Below the pieces are notes generated by a model. That model was not told the DNA's origin. It was given only the letters and a program-made list of their open reading frames with translations, and did not search any database. Both the position numbers and the translations under genes were made by a program. Shown piece by piece: positions 4,865 through 32,000 of a stretch of DNA of 32,000 nucleotides (the first letter of the stretch is position 1; every line of letters starts with the position of its first letter). This DNA comes from Candidatus Saccharimonadota bacterium (GTDB lineage: Bacteria > Patescibacteriota > Gracilibacteria > Absconditabacterales > Absconditicoccaceae): assembly GCA_965231145.1 (NCBI GenBank), contig OZ246420.1:810001-842000 (forward strand). Direction: 5' to 3'.

Positions 4865-5066
4865 CGGATAGCAATGAGATTATAACAAAAAAATGCTAAC
4901 ATCTAAAATCGATATGCTATATAGTTCGATGCTCTTTTTGTAAAATACCTATAAGTTCTTTTTCTGTGCTATACTGAGGCCAGCCTTTACGCGGCAACAA
5001 GTTGTTTTGTTGGATATCTCACAGTCAGATTTCGCCTTCTACTACATATGTTTCTTGCGGAGAAAA

Positions 5067-5501
5067 TCAGGTTGTTTCAAAAAATGCTTTTTTTACCACT
5101 TCCATCATATGAAAACTTGTCATAAAATCATTATGTAGTCTCATCATCTCCTGATTTTTTATGTATGTTGTCTGAAATATTTTATAACCATTTACAAGAA
5201 AATGATATAAGATAGGGTCTATATTTACTTGTGTCTGTAAGCTATTTTTACTTAAGAAGTAACTATCACGACCATCTATCATGGCATTGGGATTGTAGAG
5301 CAATCTCCTAGTTTTAGCATCTACTTGAAAGCCTCCTTTATAGGTTGGATCTTTTCATAAAGTAGGAAAACTATGTCATCTCGCTCCTCCGCTCTTCGAA
5401 TGATAATCATTTCACCAATGCGAAGCGATAAGCGTCTCTCCTGTAAATGCTCAAAAGACAGGATTGTAGTCTATTCTATACGATTCTTCGCACTCCTCCA
5501 A
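5067..5501 (-). CDS. Hypothetical protein; start uncertain, same frame as a 38-codon ORF (5520..5636) separated only by TAA
   Basis: The ORF extends upstream of track fragment 5067..5303 through four TGA codons. The first usable start is TTG at 5501. The frame stays open to an in-frame TAA at 5520-5522. Directly above that is ATG(5636)-MREHLSPYILNEKQGIPCHNEQEAAFSALHEKKLTDIT. Confidence 0.5.
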
Positions 5502-5751
5502 TATTTTAATAAGATCATATTATGTGATATCTGTAAGTTTTTTTTCATGTAATGCTGAAAATGCCGCTTCTTGTTCATTGTGACAAGGTATTCACTGTTT
5601 CTCATTCAATATATAAGGACTCAAGTGTTCTCTCATGCAATATAGTATATCGTATCTATAATTCAAATCAATCAGTAAAAAAATCCTGCTCTCGCTGGAT
5701 TCCTTTTTAATTATGCATTCTGAGTTTTGATTTACAAGTTGCGTAATAAAA

Positions 5752-7269: not shown

Positions 7270-7383
7270 GTACCATATGTAATGCGGATAAAGCTTTGAT
7301 TTACCATAGCGAAAAAGGCAGGCATTACAAGGAAAATGTTTTTCTGATAACAAAAAATCGTCCCCGAAAGGACAATTTTTTCA

Positions 7384-7463
7384 TGCTGGAGAGGAGACTC
7401 GAACTCCCAAGCCGAAGCATACGCACCTCAAGCGTACGTGTATACCAATTCCACCACCCCAGC
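7384..7463 (-). tRNA. tRNA-Leu (anticodon GAG), type II with long variable arm, no encoded CCA
   Basis: Folded by hand. Acceptor GCTGGGG/CTCCAGC with one G:U. D arm GTG-GAATTGGTATA-CAC. Anticodon arm TACGC-TTGAGGT-GCGTA (U33, G37). 11-nt variable arm. T arm GGGAG-TTCGAGT-CTCCT. Discriminator A. Confidence 0.85.
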
Positions 7464-7708
7464 ATAAACAACAAGTGTGATATAGAGTTTCCTCCTTCGG
7501 CGTATGGGTTACTATAAGGACTTACTGGCTAATTTCAACATGATTATTGTAGTTATTAGAAGCAATTATTTTTTATACTCCCGCCGGAGGGGCGTTACTT
7601 TTTAGCATATCCCTAAAAACCCCGTATTTACTACGGGGCAAAAAGGTCTATGGCCGACCTGCCTACAGGAGACGCAGGAAAAATCAGCGGGTTAAAATAA
7701 TATCATAC

Positions 7709-7753: not shown

Positions 7754-8872
7754 CTATTTCGTCTTTTTAGCAGGAGCTGCTTTTGTCGTCTTGAGCTGGT
7801 AGATACCCTTATCAACTCTTTCAAACATATCTTTATACTTCTGAAGGTTAAGAAGGACGGTGTTTGGGCTTACCATCTTTTCCTTAAGAAGTTCTTTTGA
7901 GATCTCTTTTACGCTCATAGCTCTTTCATTTTTCTTGAGGATTCTGTAGATGATGTCTTTTACGACTCCGCCTTCGATACCCCACTCTCTGAGTCCATAG
8001 ATACCAAGTCCCATATTTACAAATGTCTGATTGTTTTTTACAAGTTCATTATGAACTGTTGTTACCTTAATAGCTTTAGCTGGGAACCACTCTATGATCT
8101 TTGAAGGAATTTCCTGGAAGTGCATAGGCTTATTCACTTTTCTGAGTACATACATGATTTTCAACTTAATAGTCTTTGGATGTACATCGTGGAAGTCCTG
8201 GAGCCCAAGCTTTCCATCGAACATCTTCGCTCCTCTAATAACATTGAAGAAGTTAGTGTAGAAAAGCGTATTTGTAAGATAATGTATACTTGGATTTTTT
8301 ACCTGAAACTCAGCTTTAAGTTTTTCAATAAACTCATAAATATCTTCTGACTCTTTTCTCTTTTCAAAGTAGTTATTTACGAAAAGCGTCATCTTAGTAA
8401 GCAAGTCTTCGAAAAGCGGATCCTTATAGAAAGCTTTGTAGAGAAGTTTATTTCTTTTGAGATAGTTGATATCGAAATCTGAAACAAGAATAAGTTTAAG
8501 TTCCTGGGGTGTAAATTTGAAAATACCTTTGTTCACCATCTTCTTGATCATATCTTCTTCTGACAGGAGACCTCCAGATACATCAAGGATCTTCTTTGCT
8601 TCTTCAAGCACCTTAACGTATTTATCATTGCCTACGATGAGTCTTCTAAATCTCATGAGGGCCTGAGTTTCTATCTGTCTTACACGCTCTCTTGTCATGT
8701 TATAGTCTTGCCCGATTCTCTGGAGAGGAATTTCTTTACTCGTGAGGAGACCAAACTTCTTGCAAAGCACAAGTTGTTCTTTTGGCTTGCAGTACTGTAG
8801 AATATCTTTGATGTTAGTACTTTCGATATCTACTTTAATTTTTTTGTCATCCATCTTTATGTTGAAATTCAT
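7754..8872 (-). CDS. Sigma-70 region-4 HTH protein with C-terminal HARE-HTH-like domains
   Basis: Intact 372-aa ORF. The N-terminal LTSKEIPLQRIGQDYNMTRERVRQIETQALMRFRR is a sigma-70 region 4.2 signature. The C-terminal half has two HARE-HTH-like segments (PMHFQEI...GLGIYGLREWG and MSVKEISKELL...FERVDKGIYQLK). No region 2 is visible, so it is probably not a canonical sigma factor. Confidence 0.75.
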   Translation of the reverse strand: MNFNIKMDDKKIKVDIESTNIKDILQYCKPKEQLVLCKKFGLLTSKEIPLQRIGQDYNMTRERVRQIETQALMRFRRLIVGNDKYVKVLEEAKKILDVSGGLLSEEDMIKKMVNKGIFKFTPQELKLILVSDFDINYLKRNKLLYKAFYKDPLFEDLLTKMTLFVNNYFEKRKESEDIYEFIEKLKAEFQVKNPSIHYLTNTLFYTNFFNVIRGAKMFDGKLGLQDFHDVHPKTIKLKIMYVLRKVNKPMHFQEIPSKIIEWFPAKAIKVTTVHNELVKNNQTFVNMGLGIYGLREWGIEGGVVKDIIYRILKKNERAMSVKEISKELLKEKMVSPNTVLLNLQKYKDMFERVDKGIYQLKTTKAAPAKKTK

Positions 8873-9356: not shown

Positions 9357-10451
9357 TTATCCTCAAATTTTAAATGTGATGATATCTCACTCCTGTACGA
9401 TATACTCTTTTCACTCTAAACGGAGATATCATTTTTCTCTCGACTGTCATCGTCCTCCCGCCTCAATAAATTTATCATATGACACAACTTCTGCTTTGAT
9501 AAACTTTTTTTCAAAGTCCGTATGGATGGCTGCAGCTGCCTGAGGCGCGCGAGATCACTTTTCGATCGTCCATGCGCGCGTCTCCTTTTCTCCTGTCGTA
9601 AAGTAGTACATAAGACCAAGCGTATCAAACGCAACTGCGATCATATCATCGAGCGTCGGAACATCTTTATCCGGATGCATATCTGCGATAAACTCTTTTC
9701 TTTCTTCCGGAGAAAATCCTAACATCTCTGATTCTATTTTTGCACAGACTATCGCCACCGGGCGATGAAGCTTCGCTTCAAATTCTTTTTTGATAGCTTC
9801 TGCATTTGCGAGATCGTCCTGCGATACATTGATAGCATAGACAAATGGTTTGAAGGTAAGAAGGTTATAACTTCTGAGAAGATCGAGAGCTTCACCCACA
9901 AATTCATCTTTTACTTCGTATGCAAGCTTTCCCTGCATGAGTGCATCGTAAATAGTTTTCAAAACAGGATAGAGCTTCCCTGCTTCCTTATCTCCTGTTC
10001 TTGCTCTCTTTTCAAGCGAAGGAAGTTTTGGTTCGATCTGTTCTATATCAGACATGATAAGTTCAGTATTGATGATCTCAACATCACGAAACGGATCAAC
10101 TGTACCTTCGACGTGCATCACGTCTCCATCGCCAAAGTGACGAAGTACCTGTACGATCGCATCTACCTCACGAATATGTGCAAGAAATTTATTTCCGAGT
10201 CACTCCCCTTTTGACGCTCACTTTACAAGCCCTGCAATATCTACGAACTTAATAGCCGCATAGACTTTTTTCTGTGTATTGGAAATTTCTGAAAGCTTAT
10301 CAATTCTTTCATCAACAACATCTACGATACCAACATTTGGTTCGATCGTACAAAATGGAAAATTTGCTGCATCTGCCGCATATGTTTTTGTGAGTGCATT
10401 GAACAAGGTAGATTTTCCTACATTGGGCAATCATACAATACCTATTTTCAT
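9357..10451 (-). CDS. ychF: Ribosome-binding ATPase YchF (Obg-family GTPase)
   Basis: Two track fragments plus a C-terminal tail join in one frame across TGA codons at 10431, 10218, 10200, 9555 and four more in the tail. MKIGIVG(TGA)[19 protein letters not shown](TGA)ASKGEG(TGA)LGNKFL, and C-terminal [31 protein letters not shown]...YLRLEGKEYIVQEGDIITFKIGG. Stop is TAA at 9357. Confidence 0.95.
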
Positions 10452-11365: not shown

Positions 11366-13261
11366 CTATCTTTCAAAATTTAAGTGATAGGTTCTTCCAT
11401 CGGGAGTTCCATTATCTATTTTAATAGGATGGTCAGCAGCATAAGCTTTATATTGTTGGAGAAGCTGAGCGGGAGAGATATTACGACCACGGGCACCCGC
11501 TTGAATACGAAGGTATGGCTCAGCGATAGTCATATATGCTTTATATGCATGCATATGCGGATCTATTTCTGTCGGGGTAAATGTGAGTATCGTATCTACT
11601 GATAATGGTCTACCTCCAAGTTTTGCTCTCACTACATTTGTTGTAGTTCACGCGTTTGCAGCAATCGACTCTATAGTATCACCCGGAACTACTACATAGC
11701 GCATAGGATATATATTTGGCAGATTCCATAACGTCTCAAGATACGTTTGTATGTCACGAGTAAGATGTTCACGGATAAATGTCTGAGCTTCAGCAGCCTT
11801 AGCATGAATACCCTTTGGCAAGTGTTCTGGATAAGGGATACTTACTAAGGGACGTCCCATAGTTTCTGGTCTTGCAGAAGGAATGTCTATAATACGAGTA
11901 GATGTTTCAATAGTCGTTTGTGGTCTTACTTCTACGCTCGATCTTGGGGTATATGTATCTTCCGATCTTTGTGGCGGTGCCACATCTGGAAGAAGTGGTC
12001 CTACATAACTACGGATATATGCTTGCAACAGTTGACCACCCTTCAAAGTAGGATCAAGCGTGATGCGCTGATCATAACCATCAACTGCTTTTTGTGCGTC
12101 TGCTACTTTTTGTTCCCATATAGCTTTTTGTTTCGTCCATATAGCTACCTTTTCAGGGCGAGCCGCTCAACGAACTTCAGCTTGATCACCTACGGCTGGT
12201 TTCAATAATTTTCCATTTGTTGCTTCATCGAGGCTTTTTTCCACACGTGCAAGCTCTGCTTTTGCAGCATTGAGAGCTTTCTTATCTCCGTCAAAAGTAT
12301 GAAGACCCTTATCTTCTTCACGCCTTGCTTCGATCAAAAGTGTATTGATAGCGTTAGGATCTTCTTTCTGAATTAAGCTTAACAAAGATTGTGCTCTTGC
12401 CATCTCATTTCTCTTATAGTCATTTGTCCCTGATGACGCTTTTGCTTCATCGAGGATACTGTTCGCTTCCTTAAGAAACTTCTTCGCAACATATGCATAG
12501 ACAGGATTTTCAGCCTGTCCCGCTTTCATATCATATTTTGCAGCTTGCGCAGCAGCTCCCCTATAAAATCTCATAGCCTGGAGCCAGTCTCACTGAGCAA
12601 ACATAGCGTCACCAGCTTTTTGAAGCTTATCTGATGGCTCATCAAGCATGATCTCCTGCTCGTTTGCGGCTTCTTTCTTTTGCTTTTCATCGTTTTGCCA
12701 TTCTGGAGAAAGATATCTTGTGAGTCTTTCAAGGGTCTTCTGGTCAAGTTTTCCTGTTACTGGAAGTCATTTTTCCTGTTGAAAAGATTTGACCATGTTT
12801 TCAGTCTCACCTCCTACACGCATGACACCGTCTACTTTCGTAGTTTTTCCTGCTCTATTGAGCGCAATCTGTACAGGCAAGACGATAGAAGCATCATTCA
12901 TGTTCAATGTTGCCATTTGTCTGCCACCCTGCATCTCAGCAATCACAGTATCCATCCTTCTGTTCATCTGTTCGAGGGTGATCTTTCCTGTGATCGCATT
13001 ACCGTATTCAAGAGAAAGGTTGTGTATTTTTTCATTGTGCTGATCAATAATGTTGCGACGTAGATCCGTCAGTTCGCGTCTCGTATTTCTTGTCACTTCC
13101 GCCTGCTCTCTCGCCATCTTTGTTTCCATATCAGAAAATTTTGCCTCCAACTCAGCTCTATCTGCACGATCGGGAATATATGCATCCAAAATCTGTTGGT
13201 TGGCTCTCCTATTGGTGATATCGACTCTGATATCTTTGTTTTCCGGACCTTTATAACCCAT
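11366..13261 (-). CDS. 631-aa protein with a PG_binding_1-like domain and a C-terminal LysM-like domain
   Basis: Four track fragments (12767..13297, 12167..12574, 11648..12046, 11366..11632) share one frame and join across TGA with no TAA or TAG. I checked this codon by codon. LPVQIALNRAGKTTKVDGVMRVGGETENMVKSFQQEKG(TGA)LPVTGKLDQKTLERL fits the peptidoglycan-binding repeat. YVVVPGDTIESIAANAG is LysM-like. ATG at 13261, with TAG upstream at 13298. Stop is TAG at 11366. No signal peptide is evident. Confidence 0.8.
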
Positions 13262-14656: not shown

Positions 14657-14657
14657 T

Positions 14658-15994: not shown

Positions 15995-16068
15995 AAAACT
16001 TAAAACAGAAAGCTTAAATCTACAAAAGGTTTTCGCTCTAAGGTTTTAGCTTTAAGGTGTAAGTTACA

Positions 16069-16765: not shown

Positions 16766-16791
16766 GTGTTTATTTGCTCTATTGTTCCTCT

Positions 16792-18144: not shown

Positions 18145-18581
18145 GTGATTTTTCGCAATAAACCCTTAACTATCGGGTATTTTTCCCCTTCAACATTTGA
18201 CAGAATGGCTGAACAGAGCAAAAAGCTAATGAGTGTCTTCTTACTACGTGAGACGTCATTTGCCGGGATCAACGGTCGGTGTTACTTCGAGGCGATGAGT
18301 GTTATTTTCGCAAAAAATATAAACTACATATCACATACCCATGCTTTCTTGAGAAAATAATCATCTAAAACAAGGTACATACCATACTTTCAAACAAAAA
18401 TCTTTTTCTCATATAACAAACGTATATACGGACAAATATTTACAAGCAAAAATCCCTCAAAAATACGATCAGAGAGATATTTTAGCCTAAAATCTCCCCG
18501 TTTTTTTGACAATTTCTCAAATATGTATAAAATGATATAGTAAGAAAAAGTATATCGTATTTACATGATATTGTTACTTCT

Positions 18582-19181
18582 ATGAGTAAAGCAATCAGGA
18601 AAGTGCCAAGAATAATGATAGTGATGATATCAGCATTATTTTTGACATGTACCAATCCTTCGTTTACCGGCGCCAGTTCATCAAACGTTATCGTGAGTCT
18701 TCCTATCTCAGCAGGAACGGTGACTATATCAGCACCTGCTTCATTCGGATTTTCATCTATAAGTGTGGCGTTTGATGCTCAGCTTATTACCAATGACTTT
18801 ACGGGAACAGATAATCGTTTTATCATAAGCGACCTTAAAGGACATGATTCTGGATATACCACGACTCTCCAATTAACTGGAGACCTCGTATCTACAGGAG
18901 GGAGTTCTATCTCTTCAGGAAACGTCTATTTTAGATCTCTCGGTCCTACAGGATTTCTTTTGAGTGGTACTGCTAACCCTAGAGTTATCATAGACTCAGC
19001 AGCTACAGGCGGATACCAGCCTCTTAACAATACAAGAAATTTTATTTATAGAGATGAAGCACTCAATACAGGTGTACTCAGTGCATACTACCAAAATATC
19101 TCTATGCAAATATCGGTACCAGCATCTCAAGCAGCAGGTAACTATGTAGGAACTTTGGTCTATACACTTATCGAAAACTAA
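18582..19181 (+). CDS. Small secreted WxL-domain-like surface protein
   Basis: Intact 199-aa ORF with a signal peptide. The C-terminus ...AAGNYVGTLVYTLIEN* resembles the WxL-domain terminal motif (Y.G.L.W.L). The last ~115 aa align with the C-terminus of the giant protein at 20516..20860. Confidence 0.7.
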   Translation: MSKAIRKVPRIMIVMISALFLTCTNPSFTGASSSNVIVSLPISAGTVTISAPASFGFSSISVAFDAQLITNDFTGTDNRFIISDLKGHDSGYTTTLQLTGDLVSTGGSSISSGNVYFRSLGPTGFLLSGTANPRVIIDSAATGGYQPLNNTRNFIYRDEALNTGVLSAYYQNISMQISVPASQAAGNYVGTLVYTLIEN

Positions 19182-19198
19182 TCAATATTTCTTTCTCT

Positions 19199-19234
19199 AA
19201 AAAAAAGACTCTCAATTATGAGGTCTTTTTTTTC
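19199..19234. terminator. Bidirectional rho-independent terminator between convergent genes
   Basis: A-run, then AGAC(T)CTCA-ATTA-TGAGGTCT, then T-run. It serves 18582..19181 (+) and 19216..20424 (-), whose TAA lies in the hairpin loop. Confidence 0.75.
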
Positions 19235-20424
19235 ACACTTTTACGAGGAGCGGTAGTCTTTTTTGCAGCGTTCTTCTTTGGAACTGTAGTCTTTTTTACC
19301 ACAGAGGCTTCTATTGGCTTTGAGCTTGAAGAAGCCGCTACTCTCTTTTTTACTACTGTAGAGCGTTTTTGAGGGGGGATGGCTATATTCTCATCATGCT
19401 GTGTTGTTTGCGTCTTACGTCTTCTTTTACGCTTCACGATAACAATGAGAAAGATGATCATCAGGATCAAGAGCGCTCATGCAGCAACAATATATTGCCA
19501 TGGAACAAGAAAGAATTGATCACGATAGACAATCTGCTTCCATTCCTGACCTTCAACATTAGTAAGAGAATGAGGCTGATGTAATACAAGTACTTCTGCT
19601 TTTACAAAAAGATGATATCGGGGAATGCTATTGATCTCATCTGTAATAGTGCTTGTTTTCGCATAGAGCTGAGCCGGATTACTTTCTTCATCCCACGTAA
19701 CAAGTCCAAAGAAACTAGAAAAATGCATATGTATCTTATAGTCTTCATCATCAAATCCATCATTTTTAATTCAAACGAGCGTCTTTAAGATGCGAGTAGG
19801 TTTATTATAAAATATCTTTACTTTATCATCTCCTCCCACTTCTTTCCCATACAATGCAAACGCTGTTACATCTTTTGCTCCCAATTCACTCAATGGTACT
19901 AAGAAAAAATTACTTTGTACTTCTCCTGGCACGACAATATCAATCAAATTTGCTTTACGAGTTACAATCGCCATAGGCGTATTGGGATCACGCGCTACTC
20001 CATCAACTACAGAATATGTTATGCAACCATGCAGGATACCGGCAAAGCCTGAAAGCTTTGTAAATGAAGCATATTTTGTCACTGTTTCTCCTCACTGCAA
20101 TGTTATGATATTCTCTCCGGACAAACCTACTGACTGTCCAAAAAATCCATTGTTCGATGTCTTACATGCTTGAACAGGTCTATCGCCATGGCTAAACTCC
20201 CCTTCTACAAAAGACAAGACCACAGAACTAGGAGATGTACCTTTATTGGTAATCAGCATACATATAGCATCCGCTTGAAATCATGTATCTATAGTTAACT
20301 CCAGACGGTTCAACCCATTACAGAAATTCAAATCTACTATGCCCACATCCTGTGCAGCCATGCACGCTCCTCCCAGGAGCCCAACTAAAAAAAGAAAAAA
20401 TATTTTTTTGATATTTTTTTTCAT
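19216..20424 (-). CDS. Surface protein with signal peptide, C-terminal TM anchor and Lys-rich tail (CscA/DUF916-like architecture)
   Basis: Three track fragments (19771..20082, 19477..19728, 19216..19470) plus an untracked N-terminus are in one frame across TGA codons; I checked codon by codon and found no TAA or TAG. N-terminus is MKKNIKKIFFLFLVGLLGGACMAAQD. C-terminus is ...WQYIVAAGALLILMIIFLIVIVKRKRRRK followed by a K/T/A-rich tail. The family assignment rests on architecture and gene context only. Confidence 0.75.
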
Positions 20425-20515
20425 ATAAAAAAGCTATACAGTGAGTAAAATACTCTTCCTATATAGCTATGTATATTATAAATACAACTCTAAAGCGAAA
20501 TGTTTGCCACACTTT

Positions 20516-23500
20516 TTAGTTCTCAATCAGTGTATATACCAGTGTTCACTGATACTGACCAATTGGCTGCTCGGCAGGAAGCGCCACTTGCATCCAGATA
20601 TATGCTCCATAAACACCCATCACACTACTATTTGCAGCGGTATCACGAAGAATAAAGTTGGTTGCATGATCAAGAGGTTGATAACTCAGTGCAGCAGTAT
20701 CTATTTCTACTCTTGGATTTGCCGATCATGCGATGGTATCGACCTCGGTAGCACTTGACTTGAAGTAGACATTTGAAGCAGAGATAGTACTCGATCCAGA
20801 AGTGAGATTTCCATCTAACTGTAGTGTCGTTGTATATCACGCATCAGCTCATACTCCGTCTGCAACCTTAAAGTATTTCGTTTCATCATTGCTAAAGTTT
20901 TGTTCAAATGTTTGTACATTGAAGGCAGGCCTCCAGAGCCCAGTGAATAAGAGCGATGCTGGCGCTGCCATCGAAAGAGTAGTTGGAAGGATATCTATAG
21001 TAAATACCCCCGTAAGTGTATGTCCTGCACTATCCATCGTTTGAATACATACTCTTGCTGACGTTTCTATTGCATACTGGAAGTAATAATTTGTCAGTAG
21101 TTCATCGTCAGAAATTGTAAACTTATCATTGTCCAATGTTCACGCACATGTCGTATCAAACGTATACGTAAATGAACTGTCTTCAGCGTCAGTAGTAGTA
21201 AATGTTCCGACTGAGGCTCCTGTTGTAAGCTTTTCATTCATCGTCAAAGGAGTTAACGCAAGATCAGTAGGTGGTGTGTTATTTCCTTGGTATGCAAATG
21301 TCATATATAAGTCATCCTGAGCTGGTATGACAAACTGCCATGTGTCACCAACGAGAGTTCCTGTGTGATTTTGTGTCATAGAAGACATCAGCATATCTCC
21401 CCCCGTGCGTACAGCCATATACAATGTACTTCCTGTCAATGGAGCTATACTTCCTGAATCGATAGTAATAGTAATGAAATCGATATCGTTATTTCTTTCC
21501 TGGAAGTACCATGTACGTTCTATTCTCTTATATCATGTCGTAATATTATCAGTAACCCAGTTACCTGTGGACTCACCATCATTTGCCCATACAAGCAACG
21601 CATTGTTTGCAAAGCTACCACCTGTAAATTCTACAATGATATCGCTTCTACTATTTTCTGATCTTGATTTTTGCTGTAAGAGGGATGAACTATCATGACG
21701 GCCGATACCAGCGATGTCACGATTATATGCTCATCCACTTGCCGCACTCCATGCAATAATATCTCACGTTAATATATAATCTACTGGCGCTACCGTCTGA
21801 TCAATCGTGATACCATATTTCAACGCAAGATATGAGTTCATCATATTCATTTCTGTATCTGAGAGTCTGCGTTCAAACGTGATGATCTCCGCGATATCAC
21901 CACTAAATGCTCCTCTTGCTGTTGTACAGTTCGAATTTCCAATAAGCAACCCTGCTCCTGTCTGACTTCACATATTAAGAGCTCATCTCCAAGCCGTTCC
22001 ACCAGTATTACCAGAACCCTGAAGTCCAAGCGTCTGTCCAAATCCTGTTCCGTAGTTCCACGAAGCAAGTGTTGCTGCATTATTGTTCACTGATACTGTA
22101 GATAACACTCTTTGCCCCGAGAGTAATGTCATCAGACGTCATCCACTCAACATCAGTCACCTATCACACAGTGTCGGATTGACATCAGTTGTATTACCAA
22201 CTACTGTGAGCACTCATGTATTATAACTATTACGGAATACTGTGAACTGTGTTGCATCCTGTCCATTCATCTGTTTTGCCATAAACAAATAATCTCACGA
22301 CAAGAAACGCACAACAGGATTAAAGTTCATTGCACCAGTGATATATATCGGTATAAGCGACTGATTATTTTGTACTCCGCTCACTCCGTTGTACACAGTC
22401 TGACTCAACCATCATGATACTCATGCTCATGCTGCAGAGAGCACAATACCTGTATCTGCTCTCAACCATGTTGAACATCCTCAAAATCATCCACATACTG
22501 AAGGTGCTAAACCTATACGCGCAAAACGCTGTTTACTTACTGACCAAGGCGATGAGATAGATCCAAAACTCGTAAACGCTCCTCCAATATCTACTGATCG
22601 ACCATCAGAAATCATAGCATATACTCCAGATTGAGCATAGACATCGAAGGTCGTGTCTACCTTTCCGCCTGAACTTAAGCGCGCAAAATTCCATCTTGCA
22701 ACGCCTTGTACCGATGTGAACACTCCTCACACAAGTATAGATCCATCTGTTTGATCAATCAATATGGTTTTTACGACACCATTGATATTTGGATCAAATG
22801 TCGTATCTAGCAATCCTGTGGATGAGACACGGGCAATACGGTTTCTCACTGCTCCTCATACTGTCGTAAATGCTCATCCCATAACAATCGATCCATCTGA
22901 CTGCACAGCAATAGCTTCAACACCATTGTTTGCATTTGCTCCAGTAAATGTTGGATCTAGCAATCCTGTGGATGTTACACGCGCGATACTCGTTCTGATT
23001 TGTCAACCTACTGTAGTAAATCTTCCTCCTACTAATATATTTCCATCTGGCTGCAACGCAAGTCCACTCACAGAACCGGTAGAATTGAAAAGTCCGGTAA
23101 AAGCAGTATCTAACTCTCCTGTCGATGTCAGACGAGCAATTCCTCTCAGGGCAACACCATTTACACTTGAGAACGATCATCCTGCAATAATTTTATCTCA
23201 CTGTTCTAAGAGTGCACTCACATTTGCATTCATAAATAAACCAGTAAATTCCGGATCAAGCTGACCAGTTGCCGTGAGACGAGCGATATAATTTCTCGAA
23301 ATTACCGTACCCGACATACGATCAAATTCTCATCACACTATAAATCCTCAGTTGCTCTGTGCTATAACAGCGTTTACCTGTGCATTTGGATATGGATGAA
23401 AATCCTGGTCTACGAGCCCTGTTGCAGTAAGACGAGCAAGGTTGTATCTTACAGAAGCAACTATCTGAACATATGATCCTCCTATAACTATCCCCCCTTT

Positions 23501-26500
23501 CTTATCTAACGCGAGAGCATAGACTGGTCATCAGAAAACATGCGGCACAACTTCATCTACGACACCCAATGGTACAAATGGCTGGATAAAAAACGTATAG
23601 AGTCATGTAAGATATAAACCACCACTATCTGTTGTTCTTAAGCATACATTTGCTATATGATCGCTCATATCTTGGAAATAATAATTGGTGAGAAGCTGCT
23701 CACCTGTTATCGTAAATTTACTATTGTCTAACGATCCTGCACAGGTAGTATCAAAAGAATACGTAAATATACTATCTTCCTCATTTGGATCTTGTGTACT
23801 CAAGAGAGCTGCAACAGATCCGATCGGAAGCTTTTCTTTTATCGCCAATGTAGATGTCTGTAAAGCATATGGTCTATGATTTCCATTGAGATATCCAAAT
23901 GTAATAGTGGTATCATCTTCAGGATTTAGTGCAAATACCCATCTGTTTCCATCCATAAGAACTCCAGTGTAAACCTGAGTACCATCTCATGTAAATGAAT
24001 TATCTCCTGAGCTTACAAACATATATAAAGTACCATCACCGAAGTTCTGAAGTGCTCCTGAATAATAAGAAATTTCTACTGTTCATACATCTCCATTTCT
24101 TTCCTGAAAACGCCATGTACGCGGAGTTCTGAGATAACCATCAATAATAGTTCATGTAACCAAAAACCCCGCAGTAGTTTGACCATCATTAGCCCAAACT
24201 AAAGTTTCATTGTTCGCAAAAGAACCTGTCGATTCAACTATGATATCAAATCTATCATTTGCAGATTGAGATTTCATCTGATACAAAGAGGAAGTGTCAT
24301 GACGCCCGATACCGGCGATATCATGATTGTATGCTCCACCACTTGCCGCACTCCATGCAATAATATCTCATGTTAATATATAATCTACCGGTGCCGCTGT
24401 CTGATCAATCGTGATACCATATTTCAGTGCAAGGTACGAGTTCATCATATTCATCTCAGTGTTCGTGAGGCTACGTTCAAACGTGATGATCTCTGCGATA
24501 TCACCACTAAATGCTCCTCTTGCTGTTGTACAGTTCGAATTTCCAATAAGCAACCCATCACCTGTAAGAGCTCCCATCGTCAATAATGATCTCCAAGCGG
24601 TACCACCAGTATTACCAGAACCCTGAAGCCCAAGCGTTTGTCCAAATCATGTTCCGTAGTTCCATGAAGCAAGCGTCGCTGCATTATTATTCACTGATAC
24701 TGTAGATAACACTCTTTGACCCGAGAGCAATGTCATGAGACGACCACCACTCAGCATCAATCACCTATCACAGAGAGTTGGTGAAGCGTCATTACTGTTA
24801 CTTACGAGAGTCAGCACTCATGTATTATAACTATTACGGAATACGGTAAATTGTGTTGCGTCCTGGCCATTCATCTGTTTTGCCATAAACAGATGTGTAC
24901 CGCTTATAAAACGCACAACAGGATTAAAGTTCATAGCCCCAGTTACATATGTTGGCATAAGCGACTGAGTGTTTTGTACTCCACTTACTCCGTTATACGC
25001 AGCCTGACTTAACCATCATGATACTCATGCTCATACTGCAGAGAGCACAATACCTGTATCTGCTCTCAACCATGTTGAACATCCTCAAAATCATCCACAT
25101 GTGGATGGAGCAATTCCGACACGCGCAAGACGCTGCTTAGGATAAATCCATGCACCATCACCCGCGATGTTAATCTGCGTAAATATTCCACCAATATCTA
25201 TAGACCAGCCATTTGCTACCATGGCCCATATACGATTGTTTACATATACATCGAAAGTTGTATCAAGATTTCCTGAATAGTCTACGTGTGCAAGATTTGC
25301 TCTTGCCGCACCCTTCACACTTGAAAAGAGACCTCACACATAGAGACTTCCATCTGGGGCGCGAACAATAGAGCTTACCGCGGAACCAGCAATATTGAGA
25401 TTTAAACTATCAATAAGTCCCGTAGAAGAAAAACGAGCAACAAAATTTCTTGCAGTAGCGGCAATACTTGTAAAAGCACCACCAAATAAGATAGATCCAT
25501 CTGGCTCAAGCAACACGGTATTCACTATAGCATTGGCTACAACACCAGTACTAAAATCTGGATCGAGAAGTCATGTTGAGGTAACACGCGCAATGTTATT
25601 TCTCGTAACTCCACCCACTGTGGTAAATGTTCCAACAAAAATAATTTTTCCATCTGGCTGGACCACCATGCCACTTACTGTACCTACTACACTTAGATTT
25701 GGGTTGAATCCAGAGTCAACCAAGCCTGTATGACTTACACGCGCCATATGATTTCTTGTCAATCATCCAACCGTCGTAAATGCACCTCCGATAACGATGC
25801 TTCCGTCTGGTTGTTCCGCTATAGCTCCTATAGTTCCATTTGCAACTACATTAAATGAAGGGTCTACCTCACCTGTTACCGTAAGACGGGCTATGTAAGT
25901 TTTTGATGTTCATCCAACAGTAGTAAATGCTCATGCGATGAGTATACCACTATTTGCCTGAACAATAATCGAATTGACTTGTCCATTTGCATTTGGATCA
26001 AAAGTACTATCTATTAGTCCCGTAGAACTCAAGCGAGCAATACGATTTCTTGCTACTCCTCACACATCAGTAAATGTCCCGCCTAAAAGTAATGAACCAT
26101 CGAATTGAGTTGCAAGAGCAAGAACTGCTCATGCCGGCACTGAAGTATATCAGGTGTCGACTATACCTACGGGTATAAATGGATCGATAGCAAAAGTAAA
26201 AAATCCTGTTGCATACAATCCCCCACTATCTGTTGACCTGACACATATATTTGCAAGATGCTGAGTCATATCCTGGAAATAATAGTTTGTATAGATCTGA
26301 GAACCAATAATAGTAAATTTATCATTATCGAGCGTTCATGCGCATCCTCATGTATCAAATGCATAGGTAAATACGGTATCTTCTTGATTCGGATCAAGAC
26401 TCGTCAGATTTGCAACAAATGATCCAAATGGCACTTGTTCCTTTATGATACCACTTGAAACACGAATGTCATAAGGAGGTTGTCCCTCTTTCAGATAACC

Positions 26501-29500
26501 AAAAGTAATGACAGTGTTATCTGTCGGATTAAATGAAAACTTCCACATATCATCATCAAGCGTTCACGTATACACTTCTACGTCTGATCATGTAAGTAAG
26601 CCTCCGCCTGATGCAACAAACATGATAAGCTTCCCTGTTCCAAACGTTGGGATAGCGCCAGAGTAATATGACAATTCTATATTTCCAACATCTCCTTGTT
26701 TTTCCTGAAAATGCCATACACGCGCTATACTTAAGTAGCCCGACACAGCAAGACCCGTCACAAGTGATCATGTTACTCACCCCTGATGAGCCCAAACAAG
26801 TCCCTGATTATTTCAAAATCCTCCCGTCGAATAGATTGAAATTTCTCCAGAGTTATTTGTAGATTTGGAACGATTTTGATAAAGTCCCATAACATCACTA
26901 CGAGCAATACCAGCTATATCAAAACTATAGATACCACCACTCGCGGCGCTCCATAAGGTAATAGTAGTATTTCCTGATCTTACCACATAATCAGTAGGAA
27001 CTGTCTGATCAAGTGCAATACCATATTTTAATCCAAGATAACTTCATACTACTAACTCCTCTCCTGTTGTAAGGGCGCGTGAAAAACTCATAATCTCAGC
27101 TATATCACCACTATATGAAGCTCCGGAAAGACACCCAATAGGAGCTCTTCCTATTTGGAGATTCACTTCTGCGACTTGAGTTGGTCTTTGTGTTGTACCA
27201 AATCCATCTGCTTTTCACTGTACAGAGAGTGTCTGTATTCTTCAACTACCATATTTCCGTCAAAGTATTTTTGGAATAGAATCATTGATAATACCAGTAG
27301 AAAATCTACGTTCTGTTCCTAGATACGTAGTAAATTTACCTCCACTCATCATAAAAGATCTATCGCATGATATCGATGTCAATGGGACTCAAACGGATGT
27401 AACAGTCAATGTTCCACTCGCTGCACGACTACGCATAACGACATATTGAGTCCGGTCCAAGTCAGTAAAATTTATTGGCATAACAAATGCAGATCCTGAA
27501 CCATCAAAACTTATTGATGGATTATAATTCATACCTCCTGTAATAAACTGTGGTTGCCATGATCCTGTTGGCTGTCCCGCTACCCCATCCTGTCATGCTT
27601 GCGTTGTCCACCCTGACACACCATTTCCCCCACCAAACTCAATACCAGCATCTGCTTTTAACCATAATGCACATCATGTTAACCCCAGACAAGTTGATGG
27701 TAAAATTCCAACACGCGCAAAACGAGTTTTAGAAACTCAATCCACAACAGTAAAGGTACCTCAAAGGAAAACTGCGTTTTGTAGAGAATCTACAGTAAGA
27801 GCCGTAATCGTTGCATTAAAAAGAGGCACAAATGTTGTATCAAGAGTCCCATCAGGAAAAAATATAACGACACGTCATACATTTTGACTATTTGCTATAT
27901 TAAATGCTCCTGCAACCATGATTCTTCCATCATTGAGAACCTTAATAGCATTTACCGCTCCATTTACCGTACCAGAGAAAGTTGTATCTAACAAACCCGT
28001 AGATGTAGTACGAGCAAGAAAACTTCTCGCTCCTCATACCACATTGGTCAAGTTTCCTCCTATAATAATTTTTCCATCTGACTGTACGTCTATAGCAAGT
28101 ACTCCACTCGAATTCCCTGTAAAACTTCTATCAATATAACCGGTTGCATCAACACGAACTATACCTGTCATAGGAACTCATGATACGGTTGTGAATATTC
28201 CTCCAATCAATGTTTTCCCATCCGATTGTATTTTAATAGCATTTACCGAGTTATTCAAATTTCATGTAAAAGTGGAATCCAGAAATCCAGAAGAAGTAAT
28301 ACGTCATACACGATTTCTAGTCTGACCATTTATCGTCGTAAATGTCCCACCTATGATCATATTTCCATCCGACTGGATATCGATTGCATTGATGATATTA
28401 TTTGTGTTTCCCGTAAATTGTCAGCCCGTTAAAAGAAGTCACGTTGCTGTTACTTTTGCAATACGAAGTATAGCCATATTTGCACCTCCTGTAGTGAATG
28501 ACCCTGCAATAACGAGACCATCATCACTAGTACGAACCATAGCATTGACACTATTGTTCATATTTGGATCAAAGATCGTATCTACGCTACCGGTAGCTGT
28601 AATACGTGCTATACGATTTCTTGCTAGTCCACTTGCTGAAGTAAAGGTACCCCCAACAATTATTCCACCATCCGGCTCAACAACCATAGTAGATATGGTA
28701 TTGTTAAATGCCGGATTGAAAGCAATGCTGATCGTACCAACGGTAAATTCTGATGCACCACACGTATAAAATACCGCCTGATGATCTTTCACCACGACAA
28801 TTACATCTCATGAAAAGTCTGCATTACCATTTTCATCACAGCTTGTTTCTGCACTAGCAGAAAGTCACGACATATTAAATCATGTATCTCCATGATGTTT
28901 CACCTGTAATTGTACTACTTCGCCATCTGCAAGTTCAGGCAGAGAGATTGTCATCTGTACGGGCTTTGTAAAAACGAGATGCTGATCTGCAAATCAAAAC
29001 GTATATACTTTTTCTATCTTTTCTGATTCATCCAATCCTTCTACATCCTTCACTGGATGTTCCTGGATAAGTATTTCTTCACTTTCAAGTGGTGCCTGAC
29101 CCTCCATAGGATCAATCTCAGGAACAATGGTTTCTGCTACTATACTCTCTGTTGAATTCTCAAGAGAGCTGATAAGTGAGCTCTCAGGGATAAACTGCTC
29201 GGTACTAATTTCTGTGTTTTGCTCACCAGAAACTGTCTCATTTGCTGTCACCACTTCCTCAACAACAGGAGCTTCTCCTATTACTTTTTCTTCTTCTGTT
29301 ACAGGAGCAAATATTTTTGTATCTTCAGGAATAACTATCGTCACTCCTGCATCCTCACCTGTCACTATCGTTCTTTCTGCAAATTGAATCTCTCTTATTT
29401 TCAAGTCAGTATCTTTCTTAAATTTCGCGCTTACGGCTGTTTCATCGATCATCAGCTCACCCTCCTGTAACCAGATCATATCTTTTGGCAAAAATGGTTC

Positions 29501-29968
29501 TGTTACAATTTTTTCTATATCTTCAATAACGGGAAGGATATGTGGGACTCCGCTTGCAATTATATTTTGCTCAGCAATAGTCTCTTCCTGTACAATCACG
29601 CTCTGTTCTCCTGCAATCTCATCTTGGTCGTTTCCAGAACTAATAATTTCTCCTGAAAACACATTATCTCATCATCCTATCTCATCAGCACTTGTTTCTA
29701 CTATTTCTACTCACTCTTCTATCATAACGTCTTCTCCTTCTCACTCACTCTGTTCATCTACTTGTACAGAGTCTATTTCACCCTCACTCACCACTGGCGT
29801 TACCGTTTCTTCCTGCACCACGGGTGCAACCTCTTCGTCGGCAGATGCAATCCGGTGTGTCTGACCAAATGAAAACACAAAAAGACAAATCCAGATGGCT
29901 GGCTTTCTCAAGTATGCAAATGGCTTTGGTGCTTTCTTTTGGATCGCAATATTCTTCACAACGAACAT
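20516..29968 (-). CDS. Giant (3,150 aa) modular cell-surface protein: signal/TM, acidic region, 3x[beta-propeller delta-60/DUF5122-type repeats, LamG, cadherin-like], C-terminal WxL-like domain
   Basis: All 13 minus-strand track fragments from 20849 to 29968 share one frame. I read every in-frame triplet in all gaps between them and found only TGA, with no TAA or TAG, until TAA at 20516-20518. ATG at 29968 gives MFVVKNIAIQKKAPKPFAYLRKPAIWICLFVFSFG (signal/anchor). Repeats such as GGAFTTVGGVTRNNIARVTSTGLLDPDF fit the propeller type. The LamG hallmark is AFSGDIAEIITFERRLSDTEMNMMNSYLALKYGITIDQ. The cadherin-like motif is FTY.FDTTCAG.LDN.KFTI.G..LLTNYYFQ. The tail ends ...GQYQGTLVYTLIEN*. Confidence 0.88.
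20850..28800 (-). repeat. Three tandem intragenic modules of about 2.6 kb inside the giant gene
   Basis: Landmarks recur at offsets of about 2598-2604 nt. The FTY.FDT motif starts at about 21160, 23761 and 26359. The LamG ends are at 21764 and 24368. The PS.C..F/L..C..WL.AD.G junctions are at 22487, 25091 and about 27690. The two C-terminal copies are near-identical at the DNA level in the LamG block. For example, 22441-22496 equals 25045-25100 over 56 nt, and 21764-21950 versus 24368-24555 differ only at scattered positions. Confidence 0.85.
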
Positions 29969-30034
29969 GTTTCAGTAGCCGAATCAGAGGTAAATTGGAT
30001 ATATCTTAGTATATCTCCTGTCCTCTTTACTGAC

Positions 30035-30058
30035 AAAAAAAGGCTCCCCTCTGGGAGC
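30035..30058 (-). terminator. Rho-independent terminator between the Nudix/NrtR gene and the giant gene
   Basis: On the minus strand: GCTCCC-AGAG-GGGAGC followed by T7. Confidence 0.8.
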
Positions 30059-30145
30059 AATCGGCCGCAAAAAATATCGTTTTTTTGCTATTAATGATAT
30101 AATGTTTGACTTTATGCTCTTTTTGTATGATATATTAGCGATGAT

Positions 30146-30814
30146 TTATAATATTTGCTGCACTTCAAGCTCTTTATTGATGAACTCATAAAGCGAAGCG
30201 GGTCTATGGGTAACCCCCACCTCTGTTTTGTCTGTTTGTCTGATCAAATGTAGACTTTGTATTTTCTTTCTAAAATTCCTCACATCTAGGCTTTGTCCAA
30301 GGATGACCTCATAGACATTTTGCAGTTGCTTCAGTGAAAAATACTTTGGCAGAAAGTACTGTGCAGCATTTGTAGATTCAAGTTTTGATCTAAGTCTTTG
30401 ATAAGCATATCTGATGATTTCCAGATGATCAAATGCAAGAGACGGAAGCTCTTTGATGGAAAAATACTGCGACTTTGTAGCATCGCTTCCTGCTGTCGTT
30501 TTACTATGTATCTCATGACAGATAGCCATGTATGCTGTTGTGATCACTCTACCTCTGGGATCTCTATGAGGATTTGAAAATGTATAAAGTTGTTCCAGAT
30601 AGACGTTTGTTACTCATGCTTCTTCACGAAGTCTTCTTCTCGCTGCTTTTTCCAGCGACTCATCTTCGAGCACAAACCCTCATGGCAGAGCCCGATAGCC
30701 TTTATATGGAGCTCCTCCTCTTTCGATAAGAAGCAGCTGCAGCGTATTATCTGTAATCGTAAAGATCACATTATCCGTTGCCACTAAGATAGACTGGATA
30801 ATTTTGTCTCCCAT
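30146..30814 (-). CDS. nrtR: Nudix hydrolase fused to an NrtR-type winged-helix domain (NrtR-like regulator)
   Basis: Track fragment 30146..30547 extends upstream through three TGA codons to ATG at 30814. The Nudix box is LPG(TGA)GFVLEDESLEKAARRRLREEAG(TGA)V. The C-terminal YFLPKYFSLKQLQNVYEVILGQSLDVRNFRKKIQSLHLIRQT...THRPASLYEF is the NrtR wHTH signature. Stop is TAA. Confidence 0.8.
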
Positions 30815-30988
30815 GAGGTATAATATACGATTTAAAAAGACCTTGATATTGTTTTGTTTACAATATCTAATCTCATATAAGATACAAGACTTATCTCATA
30901 CTTATTGTATATATCACATTAAGAGCTTGAAAGCTTATTTTATCCGCATAGAGATAGGCATGCTTTTATCTTGATTACCACTTATACG

Positions 30989-31552
30989 ATGAACGGAAAT
31001 GAAGCACAGTTTAAAGAAATGATGTTAGATAAAGTTTTGTTTGGCGGACTATTGGCAACACACGATGAAGATATGACCGCATGAAAAAGACTCGAGATAC
31101 TCAACGGGGTAAAAGAAGATCTCTGTGATGCACTCACCGCCTTTACTCCCGATCTTCCGCATCAGTTTAGCTCTCAAGTAGAATCCATCGTAGGTAACAT
31201 AAGAGATCAGATAGAGATGATTTGGGATGACGACGAGTTCATGGGATTTATGGAACTCTATAAGATCAAGCTTGACGGCATCAATGCGATGATGGACCAA
31301 GGTCACAAAGAGTCGGGAGATATATGATCTGAAGAACAAGATGAGAAAGACAACTTTGATGAGCACACGAATATCAGAGCGAAGATGCTTAACTTCGAAG
31401 TAAACTTTACAAAGATATATGAAAAGATGAAAGAACGCGGCCTGGAAAGCATGAGTATGAACGGTCTCAAAATGTGGATAGGTATGTTCAAAAAATCAAA
31501 TGCTGAAAGAGTTGAATGGATGAAAAGATTTTCAGACGACAAAAGTGAATAG
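30989..31552 (+). CDS. Hypothetical acidic protein (187 aa)
   Basis: ATG at 30989 to TAG at 31550 with two in-frame TGA codons, so it is absent from the track. It is preferred over the antisense track ORFs 31049..31366 and 31303..31542, whose translations are low-complexity hydrophobic. Confidence 0.55.
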
Positions 31553-31576
31553 TATTTTTACTCTTTATCAAGGTAA

Positions 31577-31600
31577 CGACGACGACGACGACGACGACGA
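31577..31600. repeat. (CGA)8 trinucleotide microsatellite abutting a start codon
   Basis: cgacgacgacgacgacgacgacga is eight perfect units. The final A is the A of the ATG at 31600. Confidence 0.95.
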
Positions 31601-32000
31601 TGATTACTACTCTCAGAACATTTACACACCAAGAAGATCCATATGGTGTTCAGACAAGCTTGGAAAAATTTCTTAAAGAGAAAAATACGGCTGCTTTGGT
31701 AGAAGTTCTGATGGACCCCTATGAGATAGGTACACACGGGTCGACCACGAAGATGATCATGATGTCAGACTATGCAAGATGTACTCCCGAAGTACAGCAA
31801 GAATTACTGGAGACATTGAACTGATTCGATCTTGCATCATTGGAAACAACAGAAAAGGTAAGAGAGATGGTTTCATTTACTTATTTAGCCCTCTCACAAG
31901 ACAGGATGTGTAAAAAGATTAAGCTGATCGTACAAGTCCGAGATAAACGAGTAGATGATTTTCGTGCTGGAAAATTCAGTTCACTTCCACTGAGCGCACA
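31600..32000 (+). CDS. Hypothetical protein, N-terminal part (runs off the right edge)
   Basis: ATG at 31600. Track fragment 31600..31824 continues through TGA at 31822 to the window end (…LLETLNG(TGA)FDLASLETTEKVREMV…). No family recognised. Confidence 0.55.

Follow-up and report, generated by a model that had tools for sequence, protein, structure and literature searches.

A 3,150-residue modular protein read through in-frame TGA codons as the probable large member of a WxL-type surface gene cluster

The locus and its three-gene cluster

The 32,000-nucleotide stretch of contig OZ246420.1 analysed here (positions 810,001 to 842,000 of the forward strand, assembly GCA_965231145.1; referred to as the window) carries on its reverse strand a giant gene, the product of which is, judging from its sequence relationships, very probably the large protein of a WxL-type surface cluster. 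The gene (20516..29968) spans 9,453 nt, comprises 3,150 sense codons and a final TAA, and contains 82 in-frame TGA codons and no in-frame TAA or TAG. At the base composition of the window (39.4% GC), TAA or TAG is expected at about 0.046 per codon, or roughly once per 22 codons, and by our own arithmetic on this composition 3,150 codons free of both would occur by chance with a probability of about e^-148. An initial annotation of the window had described a single uninterrupted open reading frame of 9.45 kb for 3,150 residues with TGA as its only in-frame stop triplet, which is borne out; its count of thirteen standard-code fragments is too low, since the 82 TGA codons cut the frame into 83 pieces. 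We regard this frame as almost certainly a real gene in which TGA is read as glycine, as in genetic code 25, the code of SR1/Absconditabacteria and Gracilibacteria. The code, together with related loci in metagenome-assembled genomes (MAGs) of Patescibacteria or 'Candidatus Peribacteria', agrees with the earlier assignment to a candidate phyla radiation (CPR) type of organism. Upstream, the frame remains open until it meets the TAA (30146-30148) that ends an nrtR-like Nudix regulator gene, and its first ATG is that at 29968. Because a terminator-like hairpin and a promoter-like site are located between this upstream stop and the ATG, ATG 29968 is likely to be the translation start.

Together with its two neighbours, the giant gene (20516..29968) forms a series of consecutive genes, which includes a gene for a small WxL-type protein of 199 residues (18582..19181) and one for a WxLIP-like membrane partner of 402 residues (19216..20424). 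The partner gene follows 82 nt downstream, in the same orientation as the giant gene, and is convergent with the small WxL gene. According to the published definition of Hassan et al., a WxL cluster contains at least one WxLIP and at least two WxL proteins within four genes (PMC10599100). Applied to this locus, the definition finds two WxL proteins, a DUF916 partner, the signal peptide and transmembrane (TM) helix and the adjacency of the genes, but not the literal Trp-x-Leu motifs or a DUF3324 domain; on the required numbers of WxLIP and WxL proteins, the locus counts as a WxL cluster. The initial annotation had noted the tail of the giant protein and had missed the three-gene cluster, a context which would explain how the giant protein is held on the cell.

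The assignment to the WxL type is supported by profile comparisons. The C-terminal tail of the giant protein (158 residues, 2993-3150) is 50% identical to the 199-residue neighbour, and the family of such domains, referred to here as YxL, was aligned by hhalign with four small WxL proteins of Firmicutes (Pediococcus, Lactiplantibacillus, Companilactobacillus and Vagococcus plasmids, retrieved in a tblastn search that used a family member as query), yielding a probability of 96.2% and an E-value (E) of 2.5e-9 over 152 columns that include both WxL motifs. In this alignment, D-L-K-G-x-D-S-G-Y-T-T is placed against D-L-R-G-T-x-A-G-W-x-L, and G-T-L-V-Y-T-L against S-T-L-T-W-T-L. Each of the Firmicutes WxL genes found by tblastn adjoins a gene for a 'DUF916 and DUF3324 domain-containing protein'. 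We take the tail and the 199-residue protein to be homologous WxL-type domains, and the WxL-like tail of the earlier description is upheld. The Pfam WxL model scores below its cut-off on both the tail and the small protein (E 0.02, 15.2 bits, cut-off 25), detects close family members with E 1.4e-9 and 1.6e-8, and matches 14 of 81 small family members, among which it is the only recurring family. At the second motif, the aromatic residue is kept across 150 family representatives and Trp is not (Tyr in 96, Phe in 30, Trp in 2). An AlphaFold model of the small protein (P0016, 18582..19181) is all-beta, with a predicted local distance difference test score (pLDDT) of 70; its best fold matches in the PDB are the N-terminal beta-sandwich of GH123 glycosidases (probability 0.98-1.0, template modelling score, TM-score, about 0.28), and WxL proteins are absent from the 50 best of these matches. 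Pfam Glyco_hydro_123_N_2 weakly matches two family members. A TM-score of this size is too weak a basis, and the likeness to the GH123 N-domain was dropped.

The 402-residue partner starts with MKKNIKKIFFLFLVGLLGGACMAA, which reads as a signal peptide, followed by about 285 presumably extracellular residues, a hydrophobic helix (residues 309-335) and a +14 Lys/Arg tail. A search of the databases with this protein returned a single homologue. When its family of seven sequences was compared by hhalign with eight diverse WxLIP (Pediococcus, Lactiplantibacillus, Vagococcus, two from Enterococcus, Lactococcus, B. cereus and B. anthracis pXO1), a probability of 95.6% (E 1.2e-8) was obtained over 110 columns of the DUF916/PGBD region; with just four WxLIP sequences the value was 31%. 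The cross-controls were negative, with 1.4% for WxLIP-like against WxL and 2.3% for WxL-like against WxLIP. PF06030 (DUF916) weakly matches two of the seven partner-family members and is the only recurrent Pfam family among them. The second domain of the partner is similar in size to DUF3324 (about 150 residues) and occupies the same position.

Modular anatomy and relatives of the giant protein

The initial annotation had proposed a modular surface protein with an N-terminal hydrophobic signal or anchor, and a basic and hydrophobic stretch is indeed seen in residues 1-43 (...AIWICLFVFSF...RIASA/DEE), with the same layout in the orthologue of locus L006. It is followed by an acidic region (residues 44-320) with 26% D+E, 20% E, 12% each of I and V and a net charge of -60, to which Pfam has no match. 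This region had been given as about 230 residues at 28994..29662; the region itself is real, and those coordinates correspond to its TGA-free part. The conserved N-proximal domain behind it (residues 321-412) contains a Cys pair and is common to the large proteins of loci L006, L007 and L010; Pfam held no match to it, and a profile search of the PDB no meaningful one.

The main part of the protein consists of three modules of about 868 residues (413-1262, 1263-2129 and 2130-2992), as had been described earlier, the starts of which are spaced at exactly 2,604 nt. Each module begins with a beta-propeller on which PF17164 (DUF5122) scores 148-168 bits against a cut-off of 27 (E 6e-44 to 6e-50, five to six stretches per module) and TIGR02608 (delta-60; NCBIfam) exceeds its cut-off of 76.5 bits with scores of 99 and 112; both families had been expected from the sequence. 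Six full 'ARL..G.LD..F' repeats and a seventh, closing partial one are found per module; the earlier count of about seven blades is not distinguishable from six by sequence. The residues that follow the propeller (8-239 of the post-propeller part) align with the Pfam Laminin_G_3 (PF13385) segments of two homologues (P0009 and P0013; E 4e-14 to 4e-9) and with a further Laminin_G_3 carrier (P0015), so that a LamG-like identity is supported transitively, via homologues that bear this domain. The mid domain of about 177 residues is homologous to a region with the precomputed label PF26628 in Bacteroidota-type proteins of the type IX secretion system (T9SS), and a search of NCBIfam returned no family name for it. 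Neither the propeller nor the LamG-mid region retrieved anything in sequence searches of the PDB, and a profile search yielded only T9SS tails, which stemmed from the homologues in the profile.

Each module ends with a spacer of about 100 residues. A profile of its three copies retrieves cadherins as four of the five top PDB matches (Cdhr2, CELSR1, Cdh23 and Dsc2), at sub-threshold E of 0.019-1.3, and these matches align with the spacer at ..I.E..P.GS.V..L...D......., the start of a cadherin repeat. An AlphaFold model of the TGA-free fragment of residues 1995-2121 (5-row alignment) has a pLDDT of 35.8 and is unusable. The spacer is absent from the one-module orthologues of loci L006 and L007, which fits a linker role between repeated modules, and we leave it as a putative beta-rich spacer.

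A pattern scan of GTDB representatives yielded seven related loci, in MAGs labelled Patescibacteria or 'Candidatus Peribacteria'. In two of them, L006 (JAGOPC010000027) and L007 (CAYOFF010000005), the TM partner is accompanied by one to three small WxL genes and by a large protein of one module (1,341 residues in L006, 1,356 in L007) with the same N-terminal layout, the N-proximal domain, one propeller, the LamG-like and mid domains and the YxL tail. In L008, L010, L011 and L012, the gene of the TM protein likewise adjoins a gene with a YxL tail; in L010-L012, other large proteins of up to 2,389 residues combine LamG-like and other domains with the same tail next to the TM partner. Comparison with L006 gives 40-47% identity for the large protein over the module (propeller, LamG-like and mid domains), 49% for the TM partner and about 60% for the small WxL protein, whereas the neighbouring nrtR-like gene (30146..30814, reverse strand), which encodes a Nudix/winged-helix protein, is 92% identical to its L006 counterpart (7842..8585). 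Since NrtR is conserved at 92% and the surface proteins at 40-60%, the locus evolves much faster than its surroundings. Modules of L006 and L007 share 39-47% identity with those of the window. Within the giant protein, modules 2 and 3 are 62% identical, and module 1 is 40-43% identical to either, that is, as distant as the modules of other species; by sequence, these distances imply one older and one younger duplication, or an exchange of modules.

The WxL-type family itself is broad. An exhaustive profile search returned 377 clusters (50% identity) at E <= 1e-3, including 219 at E <= 1e-10, and most of the 377 apparently originate from TGA-recoded genomes. In nearly all of the best 150 of these 377 clusters the domain is C-terminal, with the family motif ...Y.GT[LI].[YF]TL[IY]EN; 102 of these 150 are proteins of at most 260 residues and 34 of at least 400, with a maximum of 1,848. 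The 3,150-residue protein of the window is longer than any of these 150 best-scoring representatives, a comparison biased by public gene calls that fragment TGA-rich genes. Among six large family members scanned with Pfam, three contain DUF5122, one Big_9/Cadherin_4/Cadherin_5 and one Big_5. The combination of a propeller with a YxL tail is, as far as sequences tell, recurrent in the databases. The initial annotation had considered the whole architecture undescribed: no paper describing it was found, but it exists in a spacer-free single-module form in L006 and L007, and DUF5122 is combined with the YxL tail in three of the six large members.

Directly upstream of the small WxL gene lies the gene of a 450-residue secreted protein with a borderline SLH match. 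An 888-residue protein with a homologous C-terminal region is encoded upstream of the WxL-type locus of L010 (83..2749), and the 450-residue protein may be an accessory wall-associated component of the WxL-type system. Elsewhere in the window (11366..13261, reverse strand), a 631-residue protein combines PG_binding_1 (E 4e-11) and a LysM match with a long charged, probably helical region between them, which indicates, from domain matches, peptidoglycan-directed proteins in this organism. Both proteins are compatible with a wall-bearing monoderm envelope.

Table 1. Coordinates of the giant gene, its predicted domains and neighbouring features in the window.
Feature	Position	Strand	Remarks
Giant CDS, large WxL-type protein	20516..29968	-	3,150 codons + TAA; 82 in-frame TGA read as Gly (code 25)
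Signal-peptide-like N-terminus, residues 1-43	29840..29968	-	basic n-region, h-region AIWICLFVFSF, ASA/DE; read from sequence
Acidic E/I/V-rich low-complexity region, residues 44-320	29009..29839	-	composition
Conserved N-proximal domain, residues 321-412	28733..29008	-	FTFG..QHLVFTKPV...CD..GN...FYTCGAS.F
Module 1 beta-propeller, residues 413-757	27698..28732	-	DUF5122/delta-60 repeats
Module 1 LamG-like domain, residues 758-986	27011..27697	-	homologues with Laminin_G_3
Module 1 mid domain, residues 987-1163	26480..27010	-	homologous to region labelled PF26628 in distant homologues
Module 1 'cadherin-like' spacer (about 100 residues), residues 1164-1262	26183..26479	-	FTYxFDT..DNDKFTI; putative fold
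Module 2 beta-propeller, residues 1263-1621	25106..26182	-	DUF5122/delta-60 repeats
Module 2 LamG-like domain, residues 1622-1854	24407..25105	-	homologues
Module 2 mid domain, residues 1855-2031	23876..24406	-	homologues
Module 2 'cadherin-like' spacer, residues 2032-2129	23582..23875	-	putative fold
Module 3 beta-propeller, residues 2130-2489	22502..23581	-	DUF5122/delta-60 repeats
Module 3 LamG-like domain, residues 2490-2722	21803..22501	-	DNA 83-88% identical to module 2 copy
Module 3 mid domain, residues 2723-2897	21278..21802	-	module alignment
Module 3 'cadherin-like' spacer, residues 2898-2992	20993..21277	-	putative fold
C-terminal WxL-type domain, residues 2993-3150	20519..20992	-	GYTTTLQ ... 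LVYTLIEN, both Trp replaced by Tyr
Terminator-like hairpin of upstream nrtR-like gene	30058..30043	-	consensus scan only
Promoter-like site TTGTCA-17-TATACT, about 40 nt before ATG 29968	30036..30008	-	consensus scan only
WxLIP-like partner, 402 residues	19216..20424	-	signal peptide, DUF916/WxLIP_PGBD-homologous N-domain, second domain, TM helix (residues 309-335), basic tail
Small WxL-type protein, 199 residues	18582..19181	+	signal peptide and WxL-type domain only; 0 TGA
Promoter-like site of small WxL gene	18506..18533		promoter-like sequence
Secreted protein with borderline SLH match, 450 residues	16792..18144	+	E 5e-4, 20.4 bits, cut-off 20.8
tRNA-Leu(GAG)	7383..7464	-	only tRNA in window

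Proposed role and alternative explanations

By analogy with the Firmicutes clusters (PMC9772566, PMC10599100), the giant protein would be exported by Sec, and its C-terminal WxL-type domain would form a non-covalent platform on the peptidoglycan together with the small WxL-type protein; the membrane-anchored partner would stabilise this platform through its DUF916-like domain, and the approximately 2,950 N-terminal residues would project outward. The lectin-like LamG domains and the propellers may then bind glycans or proteins on the surface of a host or prey cell, the tripling of the module could raise both reach and avidity, and the locus may evolve fast under pressure from host specificity or an arms race; the fast divergence fits such a partner specificity. 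In the related Vampirococcus lugosii, a part in attachment to prey has been proposed for giant surface proteins (PMC8080830). Taken as a whole, we consider it probable that the giant protein represents the large WxL member of a three-gene WxL-type surface cluster and acts as a wall-anchored, fast-evolving adhesin for host or prey. Host or prey adhesion by itself, the contact role which the initial annotation had suggested and which is plausible by analogy, we rate as an even chance.

Several observations weigh against this interpretation. The signature Trp is replaced by Tyr at both motifs (G-Y-T-T and V-Y-T-L), so that neither literal Trp-x-Leu motif is present. The motifs are 99 residues apart in the giant tail and 101 in the small protein, and in Firmicutes the spacing is about 68 residues in large and about 106 in small WxL proteins (PMC9772566); the giant tail accordingly has the small-type spacing, unlike the large WxL proteins of Firmicutes. 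The second domain of the partner compared with DUF3324/HBD gives 0.5% in hhalign (sub-alignments), and an LPXTG protein was not found in the window. Two of the earlier domain names are also affected. For LamG (Laminin_G_3), the support is transitive, via carriers of this domain, and the region of about 230 residues has no direct Pfam match at E <= 1. The cadherin-like domain fares less well: against Pfam (cadherin-like PF00028, PF17803, PF17892 and others) the spacer gives nothing at E <= 10, its hhalign probability is 0.3% when it is compared with a family member that has genuine Cadherin_4/5 domains, and the cadherins in the PDB profile search are sub-threshold. Finally, peptidoglycan binding and a ligand on host or prey are assumptions carried over from work on Firmicutes.

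The same WxL-type complex might instead capture extracellular polysaccharides for nutrients, as in the original Csc hypothesis for Lactobacillus plantarum, an alternative we consider unlikely. Carbohydrate use was proposed for Csc clusters by Siezen et al. (PMC1534035, as cited in PMC9772566), and it would suit LamG/ConA-like domains and beta-propellers, which commonly bind carbohydrate, as well as the distant LamG-mid homologues, which are T9SS-secreted proteins of Bacteroidota, and the GH123 glycosidase N-domains among the best fold matches of the small WxL-like model (TM-score about 0.28). However, the window contains no glycoside hydrolase, transporter or sugar-metabolism gene, later work on WxL proteins favours host binding (PMC9772566, PMC10599100), and the very fast divergence compared with the neighbouring genes better fits partner-specific recognition.

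It is still less probable that the giant protein is a structural or protective coat, fibrous or S-layer-like and maybe a shield against phages or proteases, which recognises no specific ligand. Its very large size, repetitiveness and high acidity (net charge -126) would be in line with such a coat, a borderline SLH-type protein is encoded beside the locus, and the giant proteins of Vampirococcus have been credited with the fibrous look of its cell surface (PMC8080830). On the other hand, the LamG-like domains and propellers, together with the Big and cadherin-like domains of the family, are domain types characteristic of adhesins, the S-layer proteins known so far tend to be much more abundant and to have fewer modules, and no self-assembly domain was recognised in the giant protein.

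We consider it highly improbable that the long frame is an artefact, be it an assembly chimera, collapsed repeats or a decayed gene whose translation still ends at TGA. Such a suspicion could arise as modules 2 and 3 share identical repeats, the longest of which reach 61 nt or more, and the short-read contigs stop at both paralogous LamG segments. Four parts of the window (1-7612, 8582-21764, 22467-24368 and 25071-32000) are matched at 100% identity by Logan short-read contigs of three runs (ERR4405439-41). The only parts of the giant gene without such cover are two paralogous LamG segments of about 700 bp (21765-22466 and 24369-25070), places at which an assembler based on k-mers would be expected to stop. 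The initial annotation had named a chimera or collapse as the outcome that would overturn its reading. The junction of modules 1 and 2 is spanned independently by one contig (L017) and that of modules 2 and 3 by another (L018), both at 100% identity, and three independent assemblies are identical on both sides. Moreover, the modules are just 40-62% identical in protein and 83-88% identical in their most similar DNA stretches (the LamG part of modules 2 and 3). An NCBI contig of 1,107,293 bp likewise encodes a protein identical to the 199-residue neighbour. From these sequence comparisons, a chimera or repeat collapse within the giant gene is very unlikely, and the chimera was rejected on the independent contigs that bridge both junctions. 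Likewise, a pseudogene was rejected, as the conserved domains continue through the TGA codons, which are aligned with Gly, and no TAA or TAG occurs in 3,150 codons.

The reading of TGA as glycine, and with it the continuous code-25 gene of the initial annotation, is confirmed along three independent lines. In the alignment of the three modules, the residues opposite TGA are Gly in 43 cases, Ala in 14, Ser in 10 and Trp in one, and TGA codons fall within motifs such as GGxFTTVG-G and FDTTCA-G. In the YchF GTPase gene of the window, seven of nine TGA codons stand opposite Gly of E. coli YchF, including the P-loop and the stretches GIV-G-LPNVGKS and K-G-ASKGE-G-LGN; this comparison serves as corroboration only. 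Thirdly, many database homologues of the 199-residue protein have Trp exactly at the conserved Gly positions of the family, and Trp exceeds 3% in 83 of 150 family representatives; a composition of this kind is what gene calling with code 4 leaves behind in genomes where TGA means Gly. That TGA encodes Trp in the giant gene (code 4, as in Mycoplasma-type genomes) was suggested by some public gene calls of homologues, which evidently used this code and show Trp at these positions, but it can practically be dismissed and was rejected, because the TGA columns favour Gly over Trp by 43 to 1 among the internal paralogues, seven of nine YchF codons face an invariant Gly (with the same reservation as above) and the resulting translations are implausible, as in one representative with 9.8% Trp and 1.4% Gly. 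A tRNA scan found no tRNA-Gly(UCA) gene within the window, and an Rfam search of the window gave zero matches at gathering thresholds.

TGA accounts for 18% of the Gly codons in 19 genes of the window, and its use is very uneven among them. The genes for RNase J (2271..4193, reverse strand; 0 TGA, 50 GGN), a sigma-like protein (7754..8872, reverse strand; 0 and 16) and the small WxL-type protein (18582..19181, forward strand; 0 and 18) are free of TGA, whereas the giant gene contains 82 TGA and 291 GGN, the YchF gene (9357..10451) 9 and 19, and a hypothetical gene (4917..5519) 7 and 10. For RNase J, the absence of TGA has a probability of about 5e-5 if the window-wide 18% applied. This could reflect an expression-linked avoidance of the reassigned codon or differing gene histories. 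In public sets, many family members are translated in code 4 (P0019, P0020, P0023, P0025, P0030, P0033, P0117 and others), and calls in code 11 shred large genes, as in Logan calls on L003 and L017, which cut the giant gene into pieces of 45-222 residues. Because public calls mistranslate or fragment TGA-rich genes, protein databases under-represent and distort these proteins.

Significance and comparison with known systems

To our knowledge, little is understood of how CPR episymbionts and predators hold their hosts; giant surface proteins are suspected, and we know of no anchoring mechanism proposed for them. The locus described here ties a giant CPR protein to a recognisable and experimentally tractable WxL/WxLIP display system, and although giant CPR surface proteins as such are already known, the anchoring system and a minable motif are what it adds. 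With the motif ...Y.GT[LI].[YF]TL[IY]EN, these lineages could be searched for candidate adhesins; the Pfam WxL model misses most of the YxL branch (377 clusters at 50% identity). As a broader and more tentative proposal, which we hold to be possible but short of probable, YxL clusters (small YxL protein, DUF916-like TM protein and large YxL protein) may be a general display machinery for giant, fast-evolving proteins of host or prey recognition on the cell wall of TGA-recoded CPR bacteria, and would then be a sister branch to the WxL system of Firmicutes that has gone unrecognised until now. If this were true, the triplicated 3,150-residue protein would be an extreme member of the YxL system, YxL would provide a sequence handle for the attachment factors of uncultivated episymbionts and predators, and the monoderm wall-display system would have an ancient shared origin or have been transferred between phyla.

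Among CPR bacteria, the closest described parallel concerns the predatory absconditabacterium Vampirococcus lugosii, which encodes giant membrane or surface proteins of 1,392-4,163 residues (PMC8080830). Both cases involve very large multi-domain proteins with a predicted surface location, a small reduced code-25 CPR genome and a proposed role in attachment to host or prey. The Vampirococcus proteins differ in their domains (WD40, TPR, PKD, DUF11, integrin and fibronectin), and no WxL-type anchor or partner genes are described for them (PMC8080830). The orthologues in L006 and L007 have one copy each of the propeller, LamG-like and mid domains, and their genes are likewise accompanied by those of the TM partner and of small WxL proteins; they contain one module and no 'cadherin-like' spacer, whereas the window protein has three modules with a spacer after each. 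More distantly, Bacteroidota-type T9SS proteins with LamG and PF26628 (P0001-P0012) share homologous LamG-like and mid domains at 26-33% identity (E down to 4e-13), including the motif GDIAE..F...L...E...V.SYLALKYGI, but are single-copy, lack the DUF5122 propeller and end with Por_Secre_tail instead of a WxL-type tail.

According to the papers on WxL proteins, the family occurs almost exclusively in Lactobacillales and Bacillales (PMC9772566, PMC10599100), and a full-text literature search found no relevant paper that combines WxL with Patescibacteria; the top-ranked CPR papers do not mention WxL. The plasmid WxL loci of Firmicutes used for comparison are organised along the same lines as the window locus: on a Vagococcus plasmid (NZ_CP038867, 7656..11880; L016), a WxL gene is followed by a DUF916/DUF3324 gene and a large MucBP protein, in L019 a BspA-type leucine-rich repeat surface protein adjoins a WxLIP gene, and in B. 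cereus (L020) WxL genes flank a DUF916 gene. Plasmids of Bacillus and Enterococcus commonly carry WxLIP genes, with 295 matching plasmid records.

The most instructive comparison is with the Firmicutes WxL/Csc clusters, namely Swp/Lwp/Duf of E. faecium, the Elr operon of E. faecalis and Csc of L. plantarum (PMC9772566, PMC10599100, PMC1534035), which consist of a small and a large WxL protein plus a WxLIP of the type DUF916-DUF3324-TM (PMC9772566, PMC10599100). The window differs in its host, a CPR-type bacterium that uses code 25; in the replacement of Trp by Tyr, or by Phe elsewhere in the YxL family; in the small-type motif spacing of its giant protein, the tail of which is 50% identical to the small protein; in a partner with a second domain not recognisable as DUF3324; in the lack of an LPXTG partner within the window; in the size of its large protein (3,150 residues, compared with 500-1,000); and in a family most of which escapes the Pfam WxL model (14 of 81 matched). 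What the two have in common is the gene trio and its adjacency, a small protein that consists of a signal peptide and a WxL-type domain only, a large protein in which adhesin-like passengers precede a WxL-type domain at the very C-terminus, and a partner with signal peptide, DUF916-homologous first domain, C-terminal TM helix and basic tail. Judged by these sequence features, the locus is homologous to the Firmicutes WxL cluster, in a different phylum and with a different genetic code.

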